A stretch of DNA of 64,000 nt from Candidatus Doudnabacteria bacterium (lineage in GTDB: Bacteria; Patescibacteriota; Doudnabacteria; UBA920), in the NCBI GenBank assembly GCA_016218585.1, contig JACRDK010000010.1, positions 68,974-132,973 of the forward strand. Reading direction: 5' to 3'. The position numbers were made by a program, and so were the translations under genes. The notes below the pieces were generated by a model that worked only from the letters and a program-made list of their open reading frames with translations, ran no database searches and was not told the DNA's origin. Below, in pieces: positions 15,122 through 32,574 of the stretch (position 1 is its first letter; every line of letters starts with the position of its first letter).

Positions 15122-17629
15122 TTATTCAAAATGAATAACCCGGTCTTTGATTTTTTCTTTTAACGCCGGGTATTTTTTTAATTCTAAATCGGTTTCTAAA
15201 ATCGCCCTGGCTTCTTGGCGGGCGGGTTCTATGAGCGAGGTGTACGATAGGTCAAAATATTTAAAGTCCCAGCCGGCTTGTTCTGTCCCATAAAGCTGCC
15301 CGAAACCGCGCTGTTTTAAATCCAATTCCGCCAAAGCAAAACCGTCTTGCGTTTTGGCAAACTGCTGTAAGCGCGTAATTGCATCTTGGTTCTGATTCCC
15401 GCAAAAAAGGTAGCAATAAGACTGATGCTCGGCACGGCCAACGCGCCCGCGGAATTGGTGTAATTGGGAAAGGCCGAATCTTTCCGCTCCTTCAATTACA
15501 ATAACCGAAGCATTTGGAACATCTACCCCAACTTCAACCACCGAAGTGGCAACCAAAATTTGCGTTTTATTGGCCAGGAAGTCAGCCATTGCCGCCTCTT
15601 TCTCAACTCCTTTTAAACGACCGTGCAGAAGGCCGATTTTGAAGCCAGGGAAGATTTTTTGTAAGGCTTCGGCTTCATTGACCGCGGATTTAACCCCTAA
15701 GCGGTCCGATTCTTCCACCAGCGGGGTAATAACAAAAGCTTGTCTTCCGGAAGTTATTTCTTTGGCAATAAATTGGTACGCTCCGGCGCGTCCGGCTTGG
15801 TCAACAACTTTGCTTAGAATGTTTTTTCTGTTAGCGGGTTTGGATTTTATTTGTGACAGGCTAAGCTCGCCAAAGAATGCCAATTTTAAGGTGCGGGGGA
15901 TTGGAGTGGCCGAGAGCGATAGCAAGTGCGGCACTCTCGCAGGCGCAGACTTACGCGGATCTAACGCCGACTTACTCGGACCAGAACGGGCCGTGTCGTA
16001 GATAATTCTTTCTATATGCACATCATCGCTGGCAAAGTTTACTAAGAGTGCAAGTTTATAGTTGGAACTTTTTAGATATGTCCAGGCTTGCCGTTTTTCA
16101 ATATTTCCAATAAATGGCAATGCTTTAAGCTCAATTATAATAGTTTTGTCAATAATAAAATCCGGTTGATATGAACCAATGTTTTTACTTTTGTAGATAA
16201 TTGGCAGATTTTTTTCTCTTTCAAACGCAATGCCTTTTTCTTTAAATTTTATTTCTAATGCATTTTGATAAATTTTTTCTTTATGTCCTAATCCGAGCTC
16301 TTTTTTTACTTCAAAAACACAACTTCTAATTTTATAAGTCAAATCTTCAAAAAGCAGAGCTGCCGGTTCTGCGTCGGTCTGCGGCTCAGTCGGCGTTTGT
16401 CCGTGTATCAGTTGCGCGCGTTGCTCTACGCCCCAGCGGTGCTGCTCGTCTATAATTACCAAAGCTAATTTTTTAAACTTGACGTTTTTTTGCAGCAAGG
16501 CATGCGTGCCAAAATAAACCCCGGGCATACCCTCAGAAATTAGTTTTTTAAACTTGTCTTTTGCAACGGTTTCCCCATTTATAATTGAATGGGTATTGGT
16601 GAGAAGGCAAATTTTTAATTTTAAATTTTTAATTTTAAAATTCTTTAGCGCTGTTTCAAAATGCTGTTTAGCCAGAATTTCCGTGGGAGCCAAAAATACC
16701 GCTTGATACCCTTTGTTTATTGTTTGCAGGGCAGCCATTAAGGCAACCAAAGTTTTGCCGCTGCCGACATCGCCTTCCAGCAGCCTGTTCATTGGCTCCT
16801 TTTTTTCTAAGTCCTGCATAATTTCCCAGGCTGATTTTTTTTGTTCGGGAGTAAGTTCAAACGGCAATCCGGCCAAAAAAGTTTTAGTTAAATCCTGATC
16901 AAACTCAGAAGGGTAGCTTTGCTTTTGCGCCATTTCCATTTTAGTTTTTTGCGCAGCTAGCTGGCTAAAAAAGATTTCTTCAAAGGCCAGGCGTTTTTTT
17001 GCCATGTCCAAACGTTCAACTGAGTCCGGAAAGTGGGACTGGGTAATTGTCTCGCTTATGTTTAAAAGTTTTTGGTTGGAAATAATTTTGTTTGGCAGCT
17101 CATCGGTAATCTTTTCAGCCAATGGTAAAACTTCTTTTATAAAATTGCGTAAAGTTTTAGGGTATAGCCCGGCTTTGAGGTGGTAGACGGGAACCAGGCG
17201 GGAAGTGTGAACAGGGAAGTCGGAAACCTTTTCATAAATTGGGTTGGTGAGCTGGAGCTTGTCTTTATAATAATTTGCGGCTCCGGCTAAAAATATTTCT
17301 TCTCCGGCGCTCAAAGTTTTTGCCAGGTAGGGCTGGTTAAACCAGGTTACCTTTAAAGAACCGGTATCATCAGAAACCAGAGCTTCGGCTAAAGACATCC
17401 TTCCCCTAAAGGAAAAGCGAGAAGAAATGCTTTTTATTTTTACTTTTAAGCTAACATTTTCTTCAGGAACAAGTTCTTTTATAGTTTTGGTTTGGCTAAA
17501 GTCTAAATAACGGAACGGCAGGTGTAAAAGCAAATCTCGCACGTTGAAAATCTCGAGTTTTTTTAAAGCCGCAATTTGCGGCTTGGTAATTTTTGGAAGA
17601 TTTTCAATTGGAGAATCTAAGCCGTCCAT
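15122..17629 (-). CDS. recG: ATP-dependent DNA helicase RecG carrying an in-frame ~160 aa GxxExxY-domain insertion between helicase motifs II and III
   Basis: Contains the wedge/OB region, Walker A GDVGSGKT, DEQH, then the inserted GHKEKIY...FIIDKTIIIELK segment, then SATPIPRTL, the HGRL.. and QLHQFRGRVGR motifs. Confidence 0.85.
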   Translation of the reverse strand: MDGLDSPIENLPKITKPQIAALKKLEIFNVRDLLLHLPFRYLDFSQTKTIKELVPEENVSLKVKIKSISSRFSFRGRMSLAEALVSDDTGSLKVTWFNQPYLAKTLSAGEEIFLAGAANYYKDKLQLTNPIYEKVSDFPVHTSRLVPVYHLKAGLYPKTLRNFIKEVLPLAEKITDELPNKIISNQKLLNISETITQSHFPDSVERLDMAKKRLAFEEIFFSQLAAQKTKMEMAQKQSYPSEFDQDLTKTFLAGLPFELTPEQKKSAWEIMQDLEKKEPMNRLLEGDVGSGKTLVALMAALQTINKGYQAVFLAPTEILAKQHFETALKNFKIKNLKLKICLLTNTHSIINGETVAKDKFKKLISEGMPGVYFGTHALLQKNVKFKKLALVIIDEQHRWGVEQRAQLIHGQTPTEPQTDAEPAALLFEDLTYKIRSCVFEVKKELGLGHKEKIYQNALEIKFKEKGIAFEREKNLPIIYKSKNIGSYQPDFIIDKTIIIELKALPFIGNIEKRQAWTYLKSSNYKLALLVNFASDDVHIERIIYDTARSGPSKSALDPRKSAPARVPHLLSLSATPIPRTLKLAFFGELSLSQIKSKPANRKNILSKVVDQAGRAGAYQFIAKEITSGRQAFVITPLVEESDRLGVKSAVNEAEALQKIFPGFKIGLLHGRLKGVEKEAAMADFLANKTQILVATSVVEVGVDVPNASVIVIEGAERFGLSQLHQFRGRVGRAEHQSYCYLFCGNQNQDAITRLQQFAKTQDGFALAELDLKQRGFGQLYGTEQAGWDFKYFDLSYTSLIEPARQEARAILETDLELKKYPALKEKIKDRVIHFE

Positions 17630-21635: not shown

Positions 21636-22622
21636 TTATAGGGTGGTTATAGGGCGGCTTTGGGTAATATAGAATTGGCCTTTTTGGTAGGCCCATTCAA
21701 TATCCTGGGGGTGTTTGTAGTGCTTTTCTATGTTTTTGCAGATTTTTGCCAGTTCAACTATTTGCTTTCCGGTAAGTTTTTGTTTGCCGCCGGCAGCTTT
21801 AGAAAGTTTTTTGTTAATGTTTTTTCCGCTCGCGGTTTTAACTATGGCAAAAGACTGTTCGGAAACGTTAATGTCCAAAATAGAAAAGTCATTCTTATGA
21901 ATAATATAGGTATCCGGGGTAATCATGCCGCCGACAATGGCTTCGCCCAGACCAAGGCCGGCTTCAATTACCATTTGGCCATAATCTTTGGTTACCGGGT
22001 GCACGGTAAAGCTAATGCCGGAAATTTCGCTTTGCACCATTTTTTGCACAACTACAGCCACTGAAACTTTATTCTTATGTAATTTTTTCTCAAACCGGTA
22101 AAAAATTGCCCTGGGAGTGAATAGGGAAGACCAGCATTTTTTTACGCTGGTTAGAATATTTTTTTCCGTGACGTTAAGATAGGTTTCCAGTTCTCCGGCC
22201 CAGGAGGCGGTTTTACTGTCTTCGGCCGTGGCGGAAGAACGCACAGCAAAGAATTGGTCGGTGTGTCCTCCTCGCCCCTTGCGGGAGAGGGTGGGGTGAG
22301 GGGTTGTAAGCAATGTTAAAGACTCCATTATCTCACTTTGAATATCAACAGGAATTTTCTCGTCCAAAATAATCCTTCTAATTTCAGCGCTGGCTTTATC
22401 CACCGAGTTAACGTCTTTATGGTTAACTTTTTTTAATATTGCCTCAATGTCTGCCGCAATATTTGTCTCTTCTAAAAATCTTTCAAAAGCCCCGGCCAAA
22501 ACCACAAAACCCGGCGGAACAGGCATTCCCGCGCGCGTAATTTCGCCCAAAGAAGCCCCCTTGCCCCCGGCAATCGAAACATCTTTTTTTGAAAGTTGTT
22601 TGAAATTTTTAGTTAAATTCAT
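21636..22622 (-). CDS. PEP-synthase/pyruvate-phosphate-dikinase N-terminal ATP-binding (PEP/pyruvate-binding family) domain protein, stand-alone
   Basis: SIAGGKGASLGE and VRSSATAEDSKTASWAGELETY are signature motifs of the PPDK_N / rifampin-phosphotransferase ATP-grasp-like domain. There is no His or TIM-barrel domain. Confidence 0.75.
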   Translation of the reverse strand: MNLTKNFKQLSKKDVSIAGGKGASLGEITRAGMPVPPGFVVLAGAFERFLEETNIAADIEAILKKVNHKDVNSVDKASAEIRRIILDEKIPVDIQSEIMESLTLLTTPHPTLSRKGRGGHTDQFFAVRSSATAEDSKTASWAGELETYLNVTEKNILTSVKKCWSSLFTPRAIFYRFEKKLHKNKVSVAVVVQKMVQSEISGISFTVHPVTKDYGQMVIEAGLGLGEAIVGGMITPDTYIIHKNDFSILDINVSEQSFAIVKTASGKNINKKLSKAAGGKQKLTGKQIVELAKICKNIEKHYKHPQDIEWAYQKGQFYITQSRPITTL

Positions 22623-22707
22623 AAGGATTTAATATATTGACAAAATTATAATTTTATGGTATCATATTTAGTTCTTGTGTGCAAATTTTGGAAGGAGGAA
22701 TGGCAAG

Positions 22708-23274
22708 ATGAAAAACATCTATGTCGTTACCCATGGAAAAAAATTCCCGGGTGCAAACCCGGGGATGACCGAAGAAGGATTTGCGGAAGTCGCACAACTC
22801 CGCAACCTTCTTCCGGCTAAGGTTCGCGATGTCGTCTGTGGTACAGGCAAGCGCCACCTGGACACGGTCAAGGCTCTTGGCCTTAAACCAACGCGCTACA
22901 CCAGCGCGGTTGGTGGCCCGGACTCCGGCGAAGCCACCGTCAAAGGTGGGCCGGTAGACGTGGTGCGGTTGCCGTGCGGAACATTGGTTCCGTATTACAG
23001 ATACACGACTCTTGTCGATGGCCAGGACGGGATGAAGTCGGTCATTGCACAGCTGCGAAACAACAGCGTGGTCTGTGCCGGCCGTCCCAGCATGATCATG
23101 CTGGGCATGATGGAGGAGGACTCTAAGTCCGCTGCAGTATATAAGGTATCGGTGGCCATGGTCGTCGTATGCGTGAAGGTTGGCGACGAGCCCACGCTCC
23201 GCATAAGAATCGGGAGGGTGCTTAACATTCAGGAAGTCAAAGCGGTCGGCACCTCGGAGATTCACACGGTCTAA
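22708..23274 (+). CDS. Histidine-phosphatase superfamily (PGM/SixA-like) protein with RHG changed to THG; GC-rich foreign gene
   Basis: IYVVTHGKKF...EEGFAEVAQL...DVVCGTGKRHLDTV fits the histidine phosphatase branch-1 layout. There is a strong AGGAGG RBS. Local GC is about 58% against about 38% for the genome. Confidence 0.45.
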   Translation: MKNIYVVTHGKKFPGANPGMTEEGFAEVAQLRNLLPAKVRDVVCGTGKRHLDTVKALGLKPTRYTSAVGGPDSGEATVKGGPVDVVRLPCGTLVPYYRYTTLVDGQDGMKSVIAQLRNNSVVCAGRPSMIMLGMMEEDSKSAAVYKVSVAMVVVCVKVGDEPTLRIRIGRVLNIQEVKAVGTSEIHTV

Positions 23275-23360
23275 GCCCGCCAAATCGGCGACTACGTCCA
23301 AGCATTGATGCCCCGGCACTCCAAAAGAGTGTGCGGGGCATCTTTATATCTTTCTAACAG

Positions 23361-23426
23361 TTCCTTTATTTGCATCTACCCCAGTAGAATATGCTTCGTA
23401 TCTCTACGGGGCAAGCTTCAACCACA
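23361..23426. repeat. Conserved ~66-nt 3'-flank element, copy 1 (second copy at 25717..25782)
   Basis: Near-identical to 25717..25782. Contains the stem-loop ccccagtaga...tctacgggg. Confidence 0.7.
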
Positions 23427-24812
23427 TTATTTTCGTTTTATAAGTTTAACTATTCCCGTGTTAGCGTTAACCTCGACAATATCACCATCTTTAAAGACTT
23501 TGGTGGCGATTTTGGTACCAATAATACAGGGTTTTTTCATTTCTCTGGCAACTATTGCCGCGTGGCAGGTGAGCCCGCCTTCGTCCGTGATTATGGCTTT
23601 GGCAATTCTCATAATTGGCATAAATTCCGGATGGGTCATTGCCGTAATTAAAATGTCACCTTTTTTAAATTTTTGAAACTCGTCTTTGTGATAAATAATT
23701 TTTGCGGTTCCGGTTACAACACCTTTAAATCCAATAGTACCTGAGACAAGTTCGTTATTGTGACTTCTTGCTGTCTGTTCAGCAAGTTTTATACTTTCTT
23801 TTGCCCCCGAATGTATTTTGAATTTACCATTTTTTAACTCTAAGGCATAGCCATTCATTCTTGAGTGGGCCAAGTTTTTTAGCTGGGGTGGAAGATGCCT
23901 TAATCCCGATTTAATTTCTTCAGGCAATAAGTAATTCACTTCTTTTAAGTCCAGGTTCAAACGTTTACCCACCTCAATAAAAAACGATTGCAATATTAAA
24001 TAACAGGGTCTCCGGTAGTCGTCACGCATTTCTTTAAGGTAAGAAAAAACATGGGCAATTTTCATTAGTCGTTTTAATTTAGAATCCCGGGTATCTTTTA
24101 TAATTTTTTTGTAGTTATTTAAACCTGTTTTTTTGTGAAAGTTGTACTCGTAAATTTCTTTTTGTGCTTTTATTGGTGAGATAACTTGTTTTTTTAACGA
24201 GCTTACGTCAAGCGGTTTGTCTATAAAATCATAAATAGGAAGCCAACTGTATTTATAAGCATATTTTTGCAAAGCTTCATTTGTTGGGTTTCCTTTTAAA
24301 CACAGTTTTAAAAACTCCAACCTGGCTAAATTAACTTTAGTTTCTTTATATGGAGTAGAAATGGCTTCTAGCGTTTCTTTGTTTTTAATTTTACTCTCAA
24401 CTTCTTGTATTGGTCCTTCAAGAGCAATAAATGACAACAATTGCCACTCGCCAAATCTTCTTAATCGTTTGTCCAGAAGGCCTACGTCCGCTATTAATTC
24501 GCGGGCGCTTTTAACGGAAAAATTTTGCATTGAAAACTTTTTACAGAAGTTCAGCTCTTGAATAAATACATTTTCATAAGCCTTGGCAAAAATTTGAATG
24601 TCTTGCTTTAGCAAGAAGCTCTGAAATTTTTTAATTACCGCTTGCAGTTCTTTTTCGTCAAAAAAATAGCCGTTTAAATTGCCTTTTGGTACAAAAAGTT
24701 TATTTTTGCAGGCAGCCCATTTGGGGTCCGATTTTAGGAAGGTCAAAAAATAAGATGTTGCAATAAAAGGGGAGTATTTTCTAGCCCAAATTTCCTGCCA
24801 TTTAGTGCTCAT
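23427..24812 (-). CDS. PEP-utilising-enzyme mobile (phosphohistidine swivel) domain protein with a divergent N-terminal domain, paralog A
   Basis: C-terminus GDILITAMTHPEFMP...TDEGGLTCHAAIVAREMKKPCIIGTKIATKVFKDGD (the conserved His lies in TCHAAIV). Confidence 0.75.
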   Translation of the reverse strand: MSTKWQEIWARKYSPFIATSYFLTFLKSDPKWAACKNKLFVPKGNLNGYFFDEKELQAVIKKFQSFLLKQDIQIFAKAYENVFIQELNFCKKFSMQNFSVKSARELIADVGLLDKRLRRFGEWQLLSFIALEGPIQEVESKIKNKETLEAISTPYKETKVNLARLEFLKLCLKGNPTNEALQKYAYKYSWLPIYDFIDKPLDVSSLKKQVISPIKAQKEIYEYNFHKKTGLNNYKKIIKDTRDSKLKRLMKIAHVFSYLKEMRDDYRRPCYLILQSFFIEVGKRLNLDLKEVNYLLPEEIKSGLRHLPPQLKNLAHSRMNGYALELKNGKFKIHSGAKESIKLAEQTARSHNNELVSGTIGFKGVVTGTAKIIYHKDEFQKFKKGDILITAMTHPEFMPIMRIAKAIITDEGGLTCHAAIVAREMKKPCIIGTKIATKVFKDGDIVEVNANTGIVKLIKRK

Positions 24813-24813
24813 T

Positions 24814-25683
24814 TTAGATCCCCTCGCTAATTAATTTGTTTAGTATTTCTTCATTGATTACAATATCCCATTGTTTACCGCCGGTTTTAGCGTGAATTAT
24901 CGCAGACTGTTTTTGACCTTCATTTGTAATCTCAACCTGGAAACCTTGAAGCTCGGCAACGCCTGAGCCACCCACTTCTTTTAAATATTGATCTCTAGTT
25001 TCTGGGCCTTGGGTATCCTCTAAAAGTTTGGCAATAAAACTTTCTCCCACTGTTTGGTGGGTGCCGAAATAGCGCTCTAATTGATTATTGTAGTCTTGGT
25101 ATTTTTCTGGGCTTCTTTCAACTATTTTTTCAAAACTGTTTCCTACTTTCAAGTATTTTTTTAAAATTTTAGCTATGTTGGCTGCGATGCGTGAATAGCT
25201 AAAAGCTTCGGGGTCTTGCAGCTGTTCGGCAAGGCTGTCGCTTTCGTTAACCATAAAATCCATGATTCTTCCGGCCTTAAATGCTGCTAGGTGCTTTTGT
25301 CCAAATTCTGATTGGCGGTCTTGTTGAAAATCAAGCCTAGGATCGCTAATTATTTTTTTTCCATTTTTTATTTCGCTCTCAATAAAAGTCTCTATATCTT
25401 CAAGGCTGGCATTGCTTGGTATTTTTTCGGAGGACGCAAGCAAAACCCTACCAGCTGTTTCCTGGGCTCGCTGGCGGGGACTGCCAAAGGCAATTGATAC
25501 TTCTGGCTGCGGGTTTATTTCATTGCTTCTGTTTGTTGCCATATCTCTACCTTTTTCAGTAAGGCGAATTTCGTTTTCGGGTTTATCAACTTTTTCTTTT
25601 TCGCCGTGCCTAAAGAATTCCAATATGACTTTGGTTTTTGCAACTTCTTTTGGTTCAATATCTTGCCTAGATTTTTCGAACAT
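24814..25683 (-). CDS. Histidine phosphatase superfamily protein (RHG motif)
   Basis: LEFFRHGEKE is the catalytic RHGE signature. A C-terminal GTHQTVGESFI His motif is present. Separated from paralog A by 1 nt. Confidence 0.6.
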   Translation of the reverse strand: MFEKSRQDIEPKEVAKTKVILEFFRHGEKEKVDKPENEIRLTEKGRDMATNRSNEINPQPEVSIAFGSPRQRAQETAGRVLLASSEKIPSNASLEDIETFIESEIKNGKKIISDPRLDFQQDRQSEFGQKHLAAFKAGRIMDFMVNESDSLAEQLQDPEAFSYSRIAANIAKILKKYLKVGNSFEKIVERSPEKYQDYNNQLERYFGTHQTVGESFIAKLLEDTQGPETRDQYLKEVGGSGVAELQGFQVEITNEGQKQSAIIHAKTGGKQWDIVINEEILNKLISEGI

Positions 25684-25782
25684 ATTTTTTATTTAAGTTA
25701 TTTAATTTTTTAATGATTCCTTTATTAGCATCTACCCCAGTAGAATATGCTTCGTATCTCTACGGGGCAAGCTTCAATCACA

Positions 25783-27075
25783 TTACTTTCGTTTTATAAG
25801 TTTTACTATTCCCGTGTTAGCGTTCACTTCAACTAAATCACCGTCTTTGAAGACTTTAGTCGCGATTTTAGTGCCAATGATGCAGGGTTTTTTCATTTCC
25901 CTGGCAACTATTGCCGCGTGGCAGGTGAGCCCGCCTTCGTCGGTAACAAATCCGGCTGCCAATTTCATTGCCGGTAAAAAGTTTGGAGATGTCATATAGG
26001 TAATCAAAATGTCTCCTTTTTTAATTTTGCTCAATTCTTTTACGGTCATTAAAATTTTCGCTTTGCCCGTAATTATGCCGTTTTGAGCAACCCTCCCTTT
26101 TATTTCATTTATTTTTGAGTTATCCTTTTCTAAAAATATCGGCTCATTTAAATAATAGAATTTCTCATTTATGGAAACGCAGGAAAATTCCGGAGGATAA
26201 TATTTTGGCTTTCCCTTTATTAAGCTAGATAGCGTATAATATTTTAAATCTTGATAGGGGATGCCAAATTTTTTTGCAGGAATTTGCAGTAGCGGTTTAG
26301 CCAAGTTCATTATTTCATAATAAACATCCATCCTAAGCATTCTTAAATACACCAGTTCTCTGGCCTCTTTTATTATTTTTTCAAGTGGCTCGGGGATGGC
26401 TGGGTGTTTGTGTTTCTCTTGGGCCAGCGCATGCTTTGCAATATCAATTAGTTCAGAAGCTGAATAAGCCGGCGAAAAACCATCTCTTGCCCTCATCCAA
26501 CCGTATTTTTTTGCCAATACCCCCTTTGATATTCCTCTTTTATAATCCTCAATCATTTGTTCAAGAGAATTATGCTTAACCGGAAAAGAGGCGTCGCCAA
26601 TAAATTTTTCCAGGTCTCCTTTAACAATTTTTGAAACCCGGTTTTTTAAAAGTGGGGTAAAAAAATGTTCCGCTGTGTGAACAGCCCAAACGTAAGTTGT
26701 GATTTCCCTAAGAATGTTATCTAGAAATTTTAATTTATTAACGTTATCTTTAGAAGCGTTTTTCGCAAGCTCGGTAACTTTGGTTACCCATAATTTATGG
26801 GAAGTTTCCAGCCTCTCGGAAATTTCTTTTACTGAATGTGTTTTGAACCATTTCAAGACAATTGGTTTCGCTTTGGCATATGATTTATCAGATTTAAACC
26901 ATTCTCCATTGCTAAATAAAAAGTCGCATTGCCAGCCAGGCAAGCCGATTTTGTTAAAAGCTTTTTTGGTGTTACCGTCTTTGAAGGTGGACATAATAAA
27001 ACCAAAAAATGGGCGCTTTAACCAAGGCTCCCAGCGGTAGGACGAAGTTGCTTTTTTAATTTGTTCAGAAGTCAT
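25783..27075 (-). CDS. PEP-utilising-enzyme mobile domain protein, paralog C
   Basis: The C-terminal 40 aa are identical to paralog A. The N-terminal ~340 aa are unrelated in sequence. Confidence 0.75.
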   Translation of the reverse strand: MTSEQIKKATSSYRWEPWLKRPFFGFIMSTFKDGNTKKAFNKIGLPGWQCDFLFSNGEWFKSDKSYAKAKPIVLKWFKTHSVKEISERLETSHKLWVTKVTELAKNASKDNVNKLKFLDNILREITTYVWAVHTAEHFFTPLLKNRVSKIVKGDLEKFIGDASFPVKHNSLEQMIEDYKRGISKGVLAKKYGWMRARDGFSPAYSASELIDIAKHALAQEKHKHPAIPEPLEKIIKEARELVYLRMLRMDVYYEIMNLAKPLLQIPAKKFGIPYQDLKYYTLSSLIKGKPKYYPPEFSCVSINEKFYYLNEPIFLEKDNSKINEIKGRVAQNGIITGKAKILMTVKELSKIKKGDILITYMTSPNFLPAMKLAAGFVTDEGGLTCHAAIVAREMKKPCIIGTKIATKVFKDGDLVEVNANTGIVKLIKRK

Positions 27076-27078
27076 ATA

Positions 27079-28443
27079 TTAATTAATTTTTTTAACAGTC
27101 CCTTTATTGGCATCTACTTCAATTATATCACCATCTTTAAAGACTTTGGTGGCGATTTTGGTGCCAATAATACAGGGCTTTTTCATCTCTCTGGCAACTA
27201 TTGCCGCGTGGCAGGTGATACCTCCAGAATCAGTTACAAAAGCACCGGCCAAGTTCATCAAAGGCATAAATTCCGGACGTGTCATTGAGGTAACTAATAT
27301 TTCTCCTTTTTTTATCCTTTGAGTTATGGGGTTGTGTATAATTTTTGCTTTGCCAATATATATGCCCGGGTTTGCTGGTAGTCCTTTTATTATACTGGGA
27401 TTTTTTTTATTCTGCGCTGTCAAAATTTTATTCCATTCCTTTTTTGTGATGTCTAAGTAACCGGTTGGCGTCATTATACCTATTCGATTTTTTAGCTTGC
27501 TATAGATTTTGGCCTTTTTGACTAGAGAGATATCTTTAGTCTTCCCTGCTTTAAAAACCTCATCCATGCTTAACCAGCGCATATCATGAAAATTCCAATT
27601 TTTCTTTTCGCACTCAAACCTAAGCCATTTATCCATTAGATCAATTGCAATAAGCTGCAATTTCTTTTTATCGTCCCTAAACGTAACGGCGGTTTTTGCG
27701 AGTTTAGCAAAGAGTTGATATTTTTTGGGAATTTTATCAAGCTTTATAATTTTTTTTATTGCCGATACTTCAAAAGATGTTTTTTTAATGTACGCATCAA
27801 GCCATTTAGGGCTAAGTTTGAAAACGCCAGCGTACGAATTTAGAAACCAGCCGAATTCCAAGTTAAAAGCCGGGTAGATTTTATTTAAATCTCCTTTGTA
27901 TTTTTTTTCTAGCTCAACAAGCTTGAATTGAGCTTGGCTCATAAAAGAAGGGGAGCCTTGGAAAATATAATTTTGAAGTAACTCAAAAAGTTTTGAATCC
28001 GTGAGTTGTATTTTTTTTAGTTCTTCGTCCAGTGCAAAGTCAAAATGAAAATAAATATTAGCGATTTCCGAGTATGATTTTTGAATTTTCGGCCAAAGTT
28101 TAATAAATTGGTCAATATCCGAAGTCGATTGGGCCTTTAGACAAGCTGTTGTTGCCCAATTTATTTCTTTGTAAATTTTATTTATTATATTTGAATATTC
28201 TTTTTTACCAGATTTAGTATCAGTAATAATTTTGTTTCCAACAACACTCATTTTTTTGGTTGGCAGAAATGCTATTAAAAATCCATTTTCAAAATTACAA
28301 AGAAATTTATCCCAAACTACATGGTAGGGCCGTGTTTGTTTCTTTGCAGCCAAGTTGTATAAGGAGGAAAAAAAAGGGTAAGCAAGATATTCCCAGCGAA
28401 TACTTGTTTCCCAATTTTTAGGATTTGTTAGTGAATTATTCAT
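27079..28443 (-). CDS. PEP-utilising-enzyme mobile domain protein, paralog D
   Basis: C-terminus GEILVTSMTRPEFMP...GGITCHAAIVAREMKKPCIIGTKIATKVFKDGD. Confidence 0.75.
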   Translation of the reverse strand: MNNSLTNPKNWETSIRWEYLAYPFFSSLYNLAAKKQTRPYHVVWDKFLCNFENGFLIAFLPTKKMSVVGNKIITDTKSGKKEYSNIINKIYKEINWATTACLKAQSTSDIDQFIKLWPKIQKSYSEIANIYFHFDFALDEELKKIQLTDSKLFELLQNYIFQGSPSFMSQAQFKLVELEKKYKGDLNKIYPAFNLEFGWFLNSYAGVFKLSPKWLDAYIKKTSFEVSAIKKIIKLDKIPKKYQLFAKLAKTAVTFRDDKKKLQLIAIDLMDKWLRFECEKKNWNFHDMRWLSMDEVFKAGKTKDISLVKKAKIYSKLKNRIGIMTPTGYLDITKKEWNKILTAQNKKNPSIIKGLPANPGIYIGKAKIIHNPITQRIKKGEILVTSMTRPEFMPLMNLAGAFVTDSGGITCHAAIVAREMKKPCIIGTKIATKVFKDGDIIEVDANKGTVKKIN

Positions 28444-29897
28444 ATCTTTCTAACAATACCTTTATTTGCGTCTACTTCCACCATATCCCCATCTTTAAAA
28501 ACTTTGGTGGCGATTTTGGTATTAACAATGCAGGGAATGCCGAGTTCCCTGGAAACTACGGCCGCATGAGACATTAATCCACCAACATCTGTAATAATTG
28601 CAGCGGCTTTGCGCATTGCGTGAATGTAGTCAGGCGAGGTCATAGCTGTGATTAAAATTTCTCCAGCTTTCATTTTATTGCTTTCAAGAGCTGAATGCAA
28701 AACTCTGGCCCTGCCTTTTACTATATCAGCCTTGCGGCTAACCACTGTGCCATTTAAGTTTGCAGTGTTTGATTTTGAATAAAGTTCAGAAAAATATTTT
28801 GCCAGTCTCGTTGCTTTTTTTCCGGTATAAAAAGTATAGAAACCTAACTTTGAATAAAAAACATAAAACTTTTTTCTTTGAGCGATAGTTTTTTCTGCAA
28901 CTTTTTTGTCAGTGTCAAATGCCTTCGCCCATTCATCTGCTGAATAATGCAGAATATCTGGCAAAGGGACTTCTAGTCTGTTTGCTAAATGCTTGCTAAG
29001 TATGGTGATTACGCTGGAAGACCGCCAGGCCATACCTTTCCTGTGGTCCTGCAGCCAGATTGATGACGAAAGCGCATGGGCAAGTTTTCGAGTTTGAGAG
29101 GGGATTTTATATTCTTTACTAATCTTCGATTTTTGTTTTTTTATTTTTGATGGGTAGGAAACAATTTCTTTATATTCGTCTTTAATTTTTTTAAGTGAAA
29201 GTTTTCTTATTCTGTTATAAAAGTATTTCTTATTTAGATCTTTTGAACCAAAATAGCTGTTGTTTAGCCAAAACCATTTTTTGGCATAATCTTCTAATAG
29301 CTTATCTAGATGAGCAGATGTCTTAGCTTTTAATTTGCATTCCAAAAGTTCTTTTTGGCTGAGTTGGTTGAAGCTTAATTTTTCCGGCGCTAATAAAATT
29401 TCAAGCAGGGTCTCAACTTTGTCAGCAGGAACCAGCTTGGCTAATGCGCTTTTTAATAACACGGGCGCTCCGTAATTAGCAACCTCAAAAACATCAGTTA
29501 AGCACCAGAATTGATAATATAGTCTATGCCACTCTAAGGCCAAGTTTTTTATTTCATTATTTTTTGAGGCAGAAAAAGAAACTGCGTTAATTTTTTTTAC
29601 TATCCCATTTAATTGTTTTACGTAGGAATAATAAATTTTTTCTATTTTTTTTCTTTTTTCTCCAGGTAAAACCCATTTTTTTATGGAGGCGATGCCATTT
29701 TTTTCAAGGCCGGCCTTTCTCCAATAAAAAGTACCCTTGTCATTTTTAATAATGCCAACCATGCTTTCCCAATAAATACCCCAAGGGCTTTTTATTGTTC
29801 CCGACATTGGGGCAAACCAAAAAGAGGGGTAAATTAGTTTCATATCTATTGGCCCCCATTGTTCAACTTCGTCTTTTGTCGGAAGAATGATTCTCAT
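28440..29897 (-). CDS. PEP-utilising-enzyme mobile domain protein, paralog E
   Basis: C-terminus GEILITAMTSPDY...GGLMSHAAVVSRELGIPCIVNTKIATKVFKDGD. Confidence 0.75.
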   Translation of the reverse strand: MRIILPTKDEVEQWGPIDMKLIYPSFWFAPMSGTIKSPWGIYWESMVGIIKNDKGTFYWRKAGLEKNGIASIKKWVLPGEKRKKIEKIYYSYVKQLNGIVKKINAVSFSASKNNEIKNLALEWHRLYYQFWCLTDVFEVANYGAPVLLKSALAKLVPADKVETLLEILLAPEKLSFNQLSQKELLECKLKAKTSAHLDKLLEDYAKKWFWLNNSYFGSKDLNKKYFYNRIRKLSLKKIKDEYKEIVSYPSKIKKQKSKISKEYKIPSQTRKLAHALSSSIWLQDHRKGMAWRSSSVITILSKHLANRLEVPLPDILHYSADEWAKAFDTDKKVAEKTIAQRKKFYVFYSKLGFYTFYTGKKATRLAKYFSELYSKSNTANLNGTVVSRKADIVKGRARVLHSALESNKMKAGEILITAMTSPDYIHAMRKAAAIITDVGGLMSHAAVVSRELGIPCIVNTKIATKVFKDGDMVEVDANKGIVRKI

Positions 29898-31309
29898 ATT
29901 TTCCTAACGATTCCTTTATTTGCGTCTACTTCCACCATGTCGCCATCTTTTAATACTCGGGTAGCGATTTTGGTGCCAATAATGCACGGCTTATTCATTT
30001 CTCGGGATACAATGCCTGCGTGTGAAGTTACTCCGCCTTCGTCTGTAACAAAACCAGCTGCCTTTTGCATTGCTGGTAAAAACTCAGGCCTTGTCATCGA
30101 GGTTACAAGTATCTCGCCTTTTTTTACTTTTGCAATATCATGATAGCTGGCACATATTTTCACCCGGCCTTTTACAAATCCTTTACAGGCAACCATCCCT
30201 TTTAGTTCCATCAGTCTTTGGTTATTTGGTTTGTTAAGACACTTTTCAATATATGCCGAGTCTTTTTCTGTAAATATAAAGATTTTATTTTTTATAGCGT
30301 AGCTATCGCTTTTAGGGTAACGATTTAGTAGTAGTTTAACAAACTTGGGGCTTGTAAGATTTGGGTATGTTAGCTCCCGTGAGTGAATAAATTTAAAATT
30401 TTCTGTAGGGATATTTACTCTTAAGGCCAACTCTTCTACGACAGGTTCCAGCCAGCTCAGTGTTTCCAATAAGTATTTTTTTCTGTCATCTTGCCAGCTT
30501 GTACATACTTCAACTGTATTTATTACAAATTTTTCTTTTTCTGACAGCCCCAATTCTTTTATTAGCCTAGCTTTACTGCTTTTATTATTTTTTAATTTTT
30601 CAAATGTTGGTAAATATTTTTGTGCTTTAGATTTTTTTACGACATCCTCGTGAGACAAAACTATTGCTTTGACATAACTATTATCTATCCATCCAAATTT
30701 TTTCAAAAATCTTTTTACTAGAATTTTTTGTTTTTCTTTTTTTGCATTTTTTATTTGCCAAAGCATCATCTGTGCCTGGGAAAGGAAGGAGGGCTTAATT
30801 GCTGCGGAAAGAATTTGAAAATTTTCATGGTTGTTTAAACCACGCTTGTCTAGCATCTCTTTAATTTTAAGTTCGCTTACAAATGATATGCCCTCAATAC
30901 AATGAGCGGTTCCCACAGCCATCGATAGTTCCTTGGTAGTTTTTTGGGCCACTCTTACCAGTTCTTTTAATGAAAGTGTTTGCAGATGTTTCGGGTTTTT
31001 TTTGGCCAGCCTTTTCGCTTTTAAATAATCTTGTTTGTGCAAACGTATAAAATATTTTAGCTGTTTTACAGTTTTGTTTTTTTTGTAGTAGCCAAAGCCT
31101 ATGGATGCCAAGTCAGCCTCGTCGTAATAGTATTTTGCTCTCGTCCCATCCATGCGTAAAAAGAAATGAGAGTAGTTAACTCCTGTTATTGGTTTTATCA
31201 TCCAGCCGGTGTTGCTTGCAACAGTATGAAGATATAGAGGTAAACCATTAAAACCCTGAACCATCCACGCCTTATTTTTTAGTATTTCTACAAGCCTCTC
31301 TTTGGTCAT
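29894..31309 (-). CDS. PEP-utilising-enzyme mobile domain protein, paralog F
   Basis: C-terminus GEILVTSMTRPEFLP...GGVTSHAGIVSREMNKPCIIGTKIATRVLKDGD. Confidence 0.75.
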   Translation of the reverse strand: MTKERLVEILKNKAWMVQGFNGLPLYLHTVASNTGWMIKPITGVNYSHFFLRMDGTRAKYYYDEADLASIGFGYYKKNKTVKQLKYFIRLHKQDYLKAKRLAKKNPKHLQTLSLKELVRVAQKTTKELSMAVGTAHCIEGISFVSELKIKEMLDKRGLNNHENFQILSAAIKPSFLSQAQMMLWQIKNAKKEKQKILVKRFLKKFGWIDNSYVKAIVLSHEDVVKKSKAQKYLPTFEKLKNNKSSKARLIKELGLSEKEKFVINTVEVCTSWQDDRKKYLLETLSWLEPVVEELALRVNIPTENFKFIHSRELTYPNLTSPKFVKLLLNRYPKSDSYAIKNKIFIFTEKDSAYIEKCLNKPNNQRLMELKGMVACKGFVKGRVKICASYHDIAKVKKGEILVTSMTRPEFLPAMQKAAGFVTDEGGVTSHAGIVSREMNKPCIIGTKIATRVLKDGDMVEVDANKGIVRKI

Positions 31310-31325
31310 ATTTGTGGAGTAAATC

Positions 31326-32087
31326 TTAAGCTTTGATTTTGGCTGTATTTAAAAATTTTCCATCTGTATTAAATTGGTAAATTTGGCAAAATTCAGGTTC
31401 GTCACCGAGCTTGGCGTCTTCGTTCATATTTTCTCTTTGGAAATATCCAAGAGTGCCGCTGTGTCCGATACCTAAAAAAGTTATGCTACTATTTTCGCTT
31501 GTAATATTGTTAAAAATATTTTTTATTAGTTTTTGGTGTCTTTCAATAGCTTCGGTTGGGTGAATTTTATCATCAACTTCAGGTTTGCTATTATACATAT
31601 CATTCATCCAGCGAACAAGGGCCTCATTTTCAGAAATGCCTTCATTTTTCATCATGTCAGCATAAGGGGCCCACGTGGCTTCGTCAGCATCCGATAAAAG
31701 TTTTCTTAAATTTAAATCCTCAATTCTTATAATATCAACATCCTTGCCGTTTTTGTTAGAAGTTTTTTTATTTTTATTTGAAAGTTGGTCGATGCGGGCG
31801 CACACTAAGTCATTTGTCAGTTTGGCTCGGTCTTTGGCGCTATCTATGCTAATTACAATATTTCTTCCTTGGGGTAAACTTTCAAAAACCTTATCCCCAA
31901 GTCTCAGGCTTCTTATTAGGCCTTCCATTTTTAAAGTAGTTTCCGTTTTTTCAGGCAATTCTTCGCTTAGTACACCTAAGACTAAATTTGCCTCATCTTC
32001 CGGAAGATTTTGTTTTAATTCGTCTTTATTTATTTGCCACGTTCCTTTGTCTGCATGACGAGTTATAAAAGCTTTATTTTCTTGCAT
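31326..32087 (-). CDS. Histidine-phosphatase-like protein (RHA variant of RHG)
   Basis: N-terminal ITRHADKGTW and C-terminal FLGIGHSGTLGY are arranged like histidine phosphatase branch-1 catalytic His motifs. Confidence 0.4.
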   Translation of the reverse strand: MQENKAFITRHADKGTWQINKDELKQNLPEDEANLVLGVLSEELPEKTETTLKMEGLIRSLRLGDKVFESLPQGRNIVISIDSAKDRAKLTNDLVCARIDQLSNKNKKTSNKNGKDVDIIRIEDLNLRKLLSDADEATWAPYADMMKNEGISENEALVRWMNDMYNSKPEVDDKIHPTEAIERHQKLIKNIFNNITSENSSITFLGIGHSGTLGYFQRENMNEDAKLGDEPEFCQIYQFNTDGKFLNTAKIKA

Positions 32088-32174
32088 ATTTTTATGATTA
32101 GAATTAGTTATTTTTATTCTACATTAAACATAAAAATCAGCCAAGTTGTCAATTTTGGATGTGCCAAATTAAAA

Positions 32175-32206: not shown

Positions 32207-32298
32207 TGGCGGAGAGGGAGGGATTCGAACCCTCGAAAGGATTTGACTCCTTTACCGGTTTAGCAAACCAGCGCACTAGGCCTCTATGCGACCTCTCC
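32207..32298 (-). tRNA. tRNA-Ser (anticodon GCT), class II
   Basis: ggagagg...ctggt ttgctaa accgg taaaggagtcaaatccttt cgagg gttcgaatcc ...ctctcc g cca. Confidence 0.8.
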
Positions 32299-32359
32299 AT
32301 ATTTATTATATTTTGTCGTGATTTGGAAGGTAATAAACCCTCGTCCGCCTGAGGCGAAT

Positions 32360-32415
32360 GACTCCTTTACCGGTTTAGCAAACCAAGGCTACTTAGGCCT
32401 CCATGAGACCTCTCC
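32360..32415 (-). pseudogene. Truncated duplicate of tRNA-Ser(GCT): acceptor-5', D-arm, anticodon arm and variable arm, with no T-arm
   Basis: Anticodon/variable-arm segment near-identical to the Ser(GCT) gene, acceptor/D-arm diverged. The T-arm is replaced by the hairpin cgcctgaggcg. Confidence 0.5.
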
Positions 32416-32574
32416 ATATTTATAACCTTGAAACTAAAACCTCTCTGTCGCTCAAAAGCATTCGCGACATCTCCCCTCACCAGGGGAGAAGGGAGCATCT
32501 AATAAAAATGCGCCAGGCACTGAAGCTGAACAACGGCATTGATATAGATTACGAAGTTTATTTTATCATATTGT

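Follow-up and report, generated by a model that had tools for sequence, protein, structure and literature searches.

Two-component dikinases of the rifampin phosphotransferase (RPH) type have already been described (PMC12167813): HpeHI from Rhodococcus, CreHI from Corynebacterium and PpsAB, the phenylphosphate synthase of Thauera/Aromatoleum. In HpeHI, described as a scavenging system with a submicromolar Km, a separate ATP-grasp subunit was shown experimentally to charge the histidine of the substrate/swivel subunit (PMC12167813). Here we analyse a 64-kb stretch of DNA (the window) from a metagenome-assembled genome of Candidatus Doudnabacteria, one of the bacteria of the candidate phyla radiation (CPR). 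At positions 21636–32087 the window carries an array with one gene for an ATP-grasp subunit (A), five paralogous genes that each code for a substrate module and a swivel domain (P1–P5) and three genes of the histidine-phosphatase fold (H1, H2 and X). The array is probably an RPH-type dikinase system for small molecules, with two components, in which one A serves many P proteins.

The ATP-grasp subunit and its substrate modules

Transcription on the minus strand follows the order H2, P5, P4, P3, P2, H1, P1, A, and X lies on the plus strand. The proteins of the window are deposited as HY918_02205 to HY918_02240. Profile hidden Markov model (HMM) searches found PPDK_N in A, PEP-utilizers in P1–P5 and His_Phos_1 in H1. 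A previous reading of the window, made by a model from the letters alone (the sequence-only reading), had placed these genes correctly and had recognized that one of them codes for the ATP-binding domain of PPDK/phosphoenolpyruvate (PEP) synthase and nothing else. It had also described five consecutive P genes, all overlapping or 1–4 nt apart. Their number and strand are as described, and so are the spacings P5/P4 (−4 nt), P4/P3 (−4 nt), P3/P2 (+3 nt) and H1/P1 (+1 nt); the genes are not strictly consecutive, as H1 stands between P2 and P1, and the spacing is wider at P2/H1 (a gap of 99 nt) and at H2/P5 (+16 nt).

Gene A (21636–22622, minus strand) encodes a stand-alone PPDK_N/ATP-grasp subunit of 328 aa (Pfam E 7e-97; profile positions 2–311 of 328). 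The protein aligns end to end with residues 8–316 of RPH-Lm and with the PEP synthase 8a8e, and its C-terminus (...QSRPITTL) coincides exactly with the border of the ATP-grasp domain. The residues of the ATP site are kept: Lys21, Arg128 and Thr147 correspond to Lys22, Arg117 and Thr136 of RPH-Lm. A also matches 9goj, a 387-aa stand-alone chain named ‘phosphoenolpyruvate synthase’ (E 3e-54). Among the NCBIfam models, it matches the N-terminus of PEP synthase NF005057 at 2e-100 and RPH at 1.6e-83, all far under the whole-protein cut-offs. A search of species-representative genomes revealed stand-alone orthologues of A, 305–330 aa long and 58–94% identical, at 16 CPR loci labelled as Doudnabacteria, Parcubacteria, Berkelbacteria, Magasanikbacteria and other taxa. 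Beyond A and P1–P5, the open reading frames (ORFs) of the window include neither ATP-grasp nor swivel genes, and none of them has a PEP-utilizers_C domain.

The five P proteins have a length of 430–485 aa and carry a PEP-utilizers swivel domain at the C-terminus (Pfam E about 1e-25); their N-terminal 316–374 aa, for which the sequence-only reading had given some 340–400 aa, match no Pfam family. The catalytic His is invariant and is located within the motif GG[LIV][TM][CS]HA. It is His417 in P1 (23427–24812, 461 aa; codon 23562–23564), His386 in P2 (25783–27075, 430 aa; codon 25918–25920), His412 in P3 (27079–28443, 454 aa; codon 27208–27210), His444 in P4 (28440–29897, 485 aa; codon 28566–28568) and His430 in P5 (29894–31309, 471 aa; codon 30020–30022), all on the minus strand. 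The Thr two residues before the catalytic His, typical of PEP synthase, is found in P1, P2, P3 and P5. The deposited version of P4 (HY918_02230) has 440 aa and is thus shorter than the 485-aa ORF; six homologues of 483–493 aa align from residue 1 of this ORF, so that translation more likely starts upstream, at the ATG at 29897.

Within the window the paralogues are 21–29% identical in the N-domain and 50–72% identical over the last 110 aa. The swivel is therefore less uniform than the near-invariance attributed to it in the sequence-only reading, which holds for one 30-residue string in P1–P3: 29–30 of its 30 residues are identical among these three, against 21–23 of 30 in the comparison with P4 and P5. 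In P1–P3, 4–10 of the roughly 30 codons of the string differ synonymously, which indicates that the string is kept by selection and not by gene conversion alone; recent gene conversion as the sole source of the identical 30-mer is ruled out by these differences.

The relationship of the N-domains to RPH was revealed by profiles and by structure. In profile HMMs of the paralogues, N-domain positions 184–460 align to residues 566–862 of RPH-Lm, in the rifampin-binding domain, and the family motif falls on the RPH helix G-Y-R666-E667-Y-P-K670. The predicted model of P4, the paralogue that was modelled, matches RPH-Lm over 407 residues, and this is its best structural match and the only full-length one. 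In sequence, A and the swivel domains are nearer to true PEP synthase than to RPH, and the substrate domain is RPH-like.

In 120 members of the family, the motif reads [Q86/R19/K12]-[D106/E11]-x-[R102/K17]-[K108]. Of the 120, 117 have D or E at the acidic position, 119 have R or K just before the Lys, and 108 have K at the Lys position itself; an R/K three residues after the position equivalent to Arg666 is thus a conserved feature of the family. The window paralogues have KEMRD (P1, residues 260–264), RDDKK (P3), QDHRK (P4) and QDDRK (P5). P2 carries a variant (RMLRM-D), in which R-x-x-R-x-D at residues 245–249 (26329–26343) replaces [Q/R/K]-[D/E]-x-[R/K]-K. This variant is kept in six orthologues, and P2-type genes of this kind are found at the related loci L001, L003, L007, L009 and L028. 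The P2 orthogroup may represent a mechanistically distinct subtype.

Related loci and gene turnover

Homologous arrays were searched for and found in other CPR genomes. The related loci (labelled L001, L003, L004 and so on; L004 is a close relative and L001 a more distant one) were reached through the search with A and through homologues of P4, H2 and X. Exactly one A gene is accompanied by one to nine P genes in the window and at L001, L004–L014, L017, L019, L026, L028 and L109. In some CPR relatives there is a single P gene, or A has no P gene closer than 10 kb.

The comparison with L004 reveals a variable segment. The two loci share A (94% identical), ClpC (88%), ComF (73%), the same tRNA-Ser and the same extracytoplasmic function (ECF) sigma/anti-sigma pair. 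The 9.5 kb of the window (22634–32172) that lie between the conserved flanks tRNA-Ser/ComF/ClpC and A/ECF sigma/anti-sigma are replaced in L004 by 4.0 kb with two P genes (blastn, blastp). The N-domains of these two are at most 27% identical to any paralogue of the window, so the P genes of the two loci are non-orthologous. Synteny ends at position 32173, close to the tRNA-Ser(gct) gene (32207–32298, minus strand), which forms the conserved upstream edge of the segment and is followed by a terminator-like hairpin (32208–32175).

The more distant L001 (A 76% identical) has nine P genes, among them orthologues of P2, P4 and P5 with N-domain identities of 67, 57 and 42–49%, respectively, and it also contains orthologues of H2 (37%) and X (49%). 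P5 has a further orthologue in L026 (47%). For P1 the top cross-locus match is a gene of L005, 38% identical in the N-domain over about 340 aa, and for P3 there is no orthologue among the fetched loci. The swivels of orthologues from different genomes are 74–91% identical, compared with 50–76% for paralogues of the same genome. The greater similarity between orthologues indicates that the paralogues are old distinct types, gained and lost, and not products of local hypervariation. The contrast drawn by the sequence-only reading between an invariant swivel and variable N-domains was overstated in the light of these values, and concerted evolution of the swivels within a genome, as co-adaptation to the local A, is rejected by them as a general rule.

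Local high identity is confined to the pair P1/P2. The segment 23351–23588 (minus strand) is 90% identical to 25707–25944 over 238 nt, which comprise the 3′ ends of the two genes and 76 nt downstream; outside this tract the two proteins are about 26% identical. The shared non-coding part holds a 33-nt inverted repeat (CCCCAGTAGA...TCTACGGGG). The same 33-nt hairpin occurs at 23379–23411 and 25735–25767 (two exact matches, none expected by chance), and it was not found in 28 related loci. The shared tract may be a product of recombination, or it may act as a regulatory element at the 3′ end.

In base composition, the P, H1 and H2 genes (24000–32000) have a GC content of 0.34–0.40 and a GC content at third codon positions (GC3) of 0.30–0.37; the GC content of A is 0.43, and that of the flanking ClpC and ComF genes is 0.44–0.45. 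The AT-richness of P, H1 and H2 would fit a segment that is accessory or has been exchanged. A degenerate second copy of tRNA-Ser, covering its 5′ two-thirds, is visible at about 32330–32423 (minus strand), upstream of tRNA-Ser(gct); the two share a 30-nt repeat of 93% identity (32277–32306 and 32394–32423). Neither ARAGORN nor Rfam calls this copy, and the stretch is also found in L004 (5822–5884, 88% identity). Scans of the window with Rfam and for tRNA genes gave nothing beyond three tRNAs.

The N-domain defines a large family. When the five N-domains were used in an exhaustive HMM search, 2331 clusters (50% identity) were retrieved at E ≤ 1e-3, and 683 at the stricter threshold of E ≤ 1e-10. 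Of the best 155 family members, 119 have the architecture N-domain plus swivel, with a median length of 476 aa. Among metagenomic representatives, judged from the protein sequence (P0011, P0097, P0108, P0035, P0052 and P0092), there are fusion proteins of the types A-P-P (P0011) and A-P-..-P (P0097 and P0108), as well as P-P and P-P-P. A read-through artefact was rejected for these multi-module proteins, the junctions of which show neither start codons nor Gly/Trp read-through signatures. P0079 is a single-chain A-P protein resembling RPH. In P0092 an XRE-type helix-turn-helix (HTH) domain precedes the N-domain and swivel, and one multi-module fusion protein includes a phosphate acetyltransferase (PTA_PTB) domain. 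The fusions provide support of the Rosetta-stone type for one ATP-grasp domain serving several modules.

The proposal of the sequence-only reading that the domain logic of RPH is here split between a shared ATP-domain protein and several substrate/His-carrier proteins is well supported by this set of results: the match of the P4 model to RPH-Lm, the profile alignment to the rifampin-binding domain including the Arg666-Glu667-Lys670 helix, the end of A at the ATP-grasp border, the single A with one to nine P genes at each related locus and the A-P-P and A-P-x-P fusions.

Other genes recur in the sister arrays. Phosphatases, both His_Phos_1-like and HAD, are repeatedly present (L003, L005, L008, L009, L026, L028 and a JGI contig). 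Occasional genes encode an alpha/beta hydrolase, an HD protein, an APH-type kinase, a methyltransferase and toxin–antitoxin pairs. The toxin–antitoxin-like pairs (ribbon-helix-helix (RHH) + PIN, PhdYeFM-like and HicB-like) are inserted between P genes at L001 7918–8585, at L026 6477–7086 and in the JGI contig of P0198. Outside the array, the window encodes a RecG helicase (15122–17629, minus strand; 835 aa) with a complete PDDEXK_3 PD-(D/E)XK nuclease domain (residues 429–541, E 5e-32), which sits as an insertion between the DEAD and Helicase_C domains.

Phosphatase-fold genes

Two or three histidine-phosphatase-like genes had been noticed in the sequence-only reading, and all three are supported, H1 by Pfam, X by its predicted fold and H2 by its motifs, with weak sequence matches. 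H1 (24814–25683, minus strand; 289 aa) belongs to branch 1 of the histidine phosphatase superfamily. It passes the Pfam cut-off for His_Phos_1 (PF00300) with 28.2 against 21.7 bits (E 1.8e-6), over the N-terminal residues 23–97 only. Its motifs RHGE, GSPRQRAQETA and GTHQ are conserved in an orthologue within the L009 array (40% identity), and a faint match to the SixA model TIGR00249 was observed (6e-4). SixA is a precedent within the superfamily for dephosphorylation of the phospho-His carrier of a relay of the phosphotransferase system (PTS) type.

H2 (31326–32087, minus strand; 253 aa), the first gene of the operon, is probably, though not demonstrably, a divergent member of the histidine phosphatase superfamily. 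The invariant elements of its family alignment are RHADKG, S..RA, E153, R183 and GHSG. Two of nine family members match His_Phos_1 (PF00300), weakly (best E 0.0033), and the hhalign comparison of the H2 and H1 families gives E 0.058. Homologues of H2 adjoin P genes in L001, L005, L026 and L027. As hhalign comparisons between the H1, H2 and X families are not significant, the three are not shown to be close relatives of one another. Sequence and profile searches with H1, H2 and X against the PDB gave no significant match.

X (22708–23274, plus strand; 188 aa; HY918_02205) has its true start at the ATG at 22708 and 41 homologues. The protein has no match in Pfam. Its AlphaFold2 model has a pLDDT of 96, and in a Foldseek search against the PDB with this model the top 50 matches are all histidine-phosphatase or phosphoglycerate-mutase-like (E 1e-6 to 5e-5; TM 0.5–0.6), including TTHB049, Rv3214 and an F26BPase domain. 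X is thus predicted to carry the fold of the histidine-phosphatase superfamily. In the X family T8-H9-G10 stands for RHG, with an invariant Thr, and C-A-G-R-P for SHG; the catalytic His is kept, the canonical first Arg and second His are absent, and R49, R63, E75, D104 and R126 are conserved. Homologues of X lie within arrays at L001, L028, L109, L110, L112, L113–115 and in a JGI contig.

A near-consensus sigma-70-type promoter (TTGACA-17-TATCAT with TG; plus strand, 22637–22665) precedes X; it agrees with the consensus at 11 of 12 positions and is the best site in the scanned region, the identification being a consensus match only. In composition, X (GC 0.56, GC3 0.66 in the window) differs from its neighbours. 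In at least eight loci from different organisms the gene invariably runs opposite to the array and invariably exceeds its surroundings in GC by far: GC is 0.52–0.60 and GC3 is 0.56–0.74, compared with 0.30–0.45 in neighbouring genes. Examples are the copies at L001 16231–16761, L028 1363–1926, L109 1362–1925 and L112 9851–10534 and those of L113–L115. No stop codon interrupts the frame antisense to X in the window or in L028, and a minus-strand hairpin followed by a T-run (22763–22736) is located inside X. An antisense ORF of 221 aa over X (22654–23319, minus strand) was judged a by-product of the high GC3 of X; the plus-strand product is favoured because of its 41 conserved homologues and its confident known fold.

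Mechanism, function and comparison with known systems

In the mechanism that we propose, A would bind ATP, the swivel of each P protein would dock on A, and the catalytic His would take the beta-phosphate, yielding AMP, Pi and P-His~P. The swivel would then return to its own RPH-like N-domain, where the basic/acidic helix [Q/R/K]-[D/E]-x-[R/K]-K would position the phospho-His, and the phosphate would be accepted by a hydroxyl of whichever small molecule the pocket of the given paralogue binds. The five P proteins would be old distinct specificity types (orthogroups) with one shared charger, and the P set of a genome would be accessory and would change fast, its place between tRNA-Ser and A staying the same. 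H1, H2 and X, like the HAD phosphatases of the sister arrays, might dephosphorylate the products or reset the phospho-His carriers. From the analogy with HpeHI, PpsAB and CreHI, from homology and from the natural A-P-P fusions, we infer that A charges the P proteins in trans; that each paralogue has one substrate, and that H1, H2 and X act as phosphatases, is likewise inferred.

The most likely role of such a system is to modify, that is inactivate or process, diverse exogenous small molecules in a symbiotic or competitive lifestyle. This is the weakest step of the argument. Antibiotics or toxins, which the sequence-only reading had proposed as substrates, might be among them. The variable accessory repertoire favours the handling of exogenous or niche-specific small molecules; stable orthogroups and embedded phosphatases would fit the salvage or processing of metabolites just as well. 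We suggest, tentatively and as a doubtful extension, that the array is a modular ‘one charger, many adaptors’ platform, an accessory chemical-interaction or defence island that would neutralize or reprogramme small molecules of hosts and competitors, in which one A would load genome-specific, horizontally exchanged modules from a pool of more than 2000 clusters, together with phosphatase-fold partners that include X.

Several observations weigh against a dikinase system of this type. In RPH, the substitutions R666A and E667A abolish the second phosphotransfer (PMC4844700). Gln occupies the position of this essential Arg666 in P4, P5 and 86 of the 120 family members (R or K in 31 of 120), and P2 and its orthologues have no acidic residue at the position aligned with Glu667. 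Nothing in the locus indicates a substrate. As the view covers 64 kb of the genome, another ATP-grasp partner could be encoded elsewhere. The orthogroups are conserved rather than rapidly diversifying, which fits fixed metabolites as well as toxin defence, and if drugs were simply inactivated, it would be hard to see why the operon combines kinases with phosphatases. A PADLOC scan of all nine array proteins gave no match.

Kinase-plus-phosphatase pairs are common in metabolite pool control. The modules might accordingly serve salvage, trapping imported host metabolites such as nucleosides, sugars or vitamins by phosphorylation, with the phosphatases balancing the pools. CPR bacteria are devoid of many biosynthetic pathways, the orthogroups are stable and have conserved catalytic motifs, the arrays fill about 10–20 kb of small genomes, and HpeHI itself is a scavenging system of high affinity (PMC12167813). 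The gene sets are nevertheless wholly different between close relatives, which would be unexpected for essential salvage, some relatives make do with one P gene or have none near A, and no transporter is linked to the arrays. We regard salvage as improbable.

Somewhat harder still to sustain is a conflict or defence island, in which the modules would phosphorylate molecules of phages or competitors, or act as sensors, in a hotspot-like array. Its general plan, one shared engine with many specificity modules, recalls other defence architectures. The variable site adjoins a tRNA gene and has other content in close relatives, sister arrays contain toxin–antitoxin genes (PIN/RHH, PhdYeFM and HicB), and a fusion with an XRE-type HTH occurs in one family member. 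Against it, the nine proteins include none of the PADLOC families, no nuclease or other effector is present, and the paralogues form conserved orthogroups that are not hypervariable. The 80 viral loci retained from a single scan of IMG/VR for the swivel motif yielded only ordinary single-gene proteins with ATP-grasp and swivel, and neither an N-domain gene nor an array; a phage-borne origin was rejected on this basis.

If the one-to-many dikinase reading is true, the array offers a tractable handle on the small molecules met by unculturable symbionts and a natural case of combinatorial modularity in enzymes, which engineering could draw on. CPR genomes measure about 1 Mb, yet they devote 10–20 kb to the system, the content of which shifts between close relatives at a fixed site, and the N-domain family (about 2300 clusters at 50% identity) has no Pfam model. 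The family could also be an environmental reservoir of drug-phosphorylating enzymes, which a survey of the CPR resistome counts only as rph-like hits (PMC8651080).

Among known systems, HpeHI, CreHI and PpsAB share with the array a separate ATP-grasp subunit of about 35–40 kDa, a second subunit composed of an RPH-like substrate domain and a C-terminal phospho-His swivel, and the presumed dikinase mechanism from ATP through His~P to a substrate hydroxyl. With the same subunit split and the same RPH-like fold, the array might be a set of ordinary catabolic two-component kinases that activate phenolic or aromatic growth substrates for carboxylation or oxidation (PMC12167813), and the Hpe pathway, which phosphorylates and then dephosphorylates, could account for the phosphatases. 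This seems very improbable. The known systems pair 1:1, whereas one A is accompanied by five P genes here and by one to nine in related loci. The P proteins (430–485 aa) are about 150 aa shorter than the known substrate subunits (about 600–640 aa for PpsA and HpeH), and they match the PRK08296 models of NCBIfam in the swivel region alone, over the last ~110 aa, with 91–99 bits against cut-offs of 578–730. Their swivel motif is the PEP-synthase-like GGxT[CS]H and not the Met-containing form of HpeH, CreH and PpsA (PMC12167813). Moreover, the hosts are CPR bacteria with reduced genomes, and neither the window nor more than 20 related loci contain a carboxylase, oxygenase or aromatic-catabolism gene; the array has instead embedded phosphatase-fold genes and the setting of a variable CPR island.

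PEP synthase and pyruvate phosphate dikinase are the closest sequence relatives of the ATP-grasp and swivel domains (swivel profile against 8a8e, 1e-40), and PEP synthase shares the motif GGxT[CS]HAA with the array swivels. Unlike PEP synthase, the array has no PEP/pyruvate-binding TIM-barrel (PEP-utilizers_C), its domain order is different and its genes are split; the scores against TIGR01418 and NF005057 (107–337 bits) are under the cut-offs of 598 and 740. A decaying, fragmented ppsA with duplicated remnants and no coherent function, which the best scores of A and of the swivels against PEP-synthase models might evoke, is refuted, as A is no fragment of ppsA but ends at an exact domain border and is conserved as a gene of 305–330 aa in 16 genomes, the P ORFs are all intact, with the invariant catalytic His, tight operon spacing and orthologues conserved across genomes, and the N-domains are not PEP-synthase domains.

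RPH (RPH-Lm, PDB 5FBS/5FBT/5HV1) has the same three domain types, a catalytic His in a C-terminal swivel and a homologous helix with Arg666-Glu667-Lys670, where most family members have Gln for Arg666. It is a single polypeptide of about 865 aa, whereas the system of the array is split; identity is only 15–19%, and the rifampin-binding domain exceeds the N-domain by about 100 aa. Against the RPH models, the P proteins score 60–83 bits and A 281 bits with NF041857 (cut-off 999), and 44–63 and 198 bits with NF000283 (cut-off 1700). By sequence, then, the array belongs neither to RPH, nor to the PRK08296 models, nor to PEP synthase.

The splitting into subunits is not in itself new. In the literature searched, there is no description of one-to-many arrays, of their rapid turnover between a tRNA gene and A, of the shorter CPR-type N-domains or of recurrent phosphatase partners including X. 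The chemistry of RPH-type dikinases and their division into two subunits are known; what is apparently undescribed is a single ATP-grasp subunit for five to nine modules.

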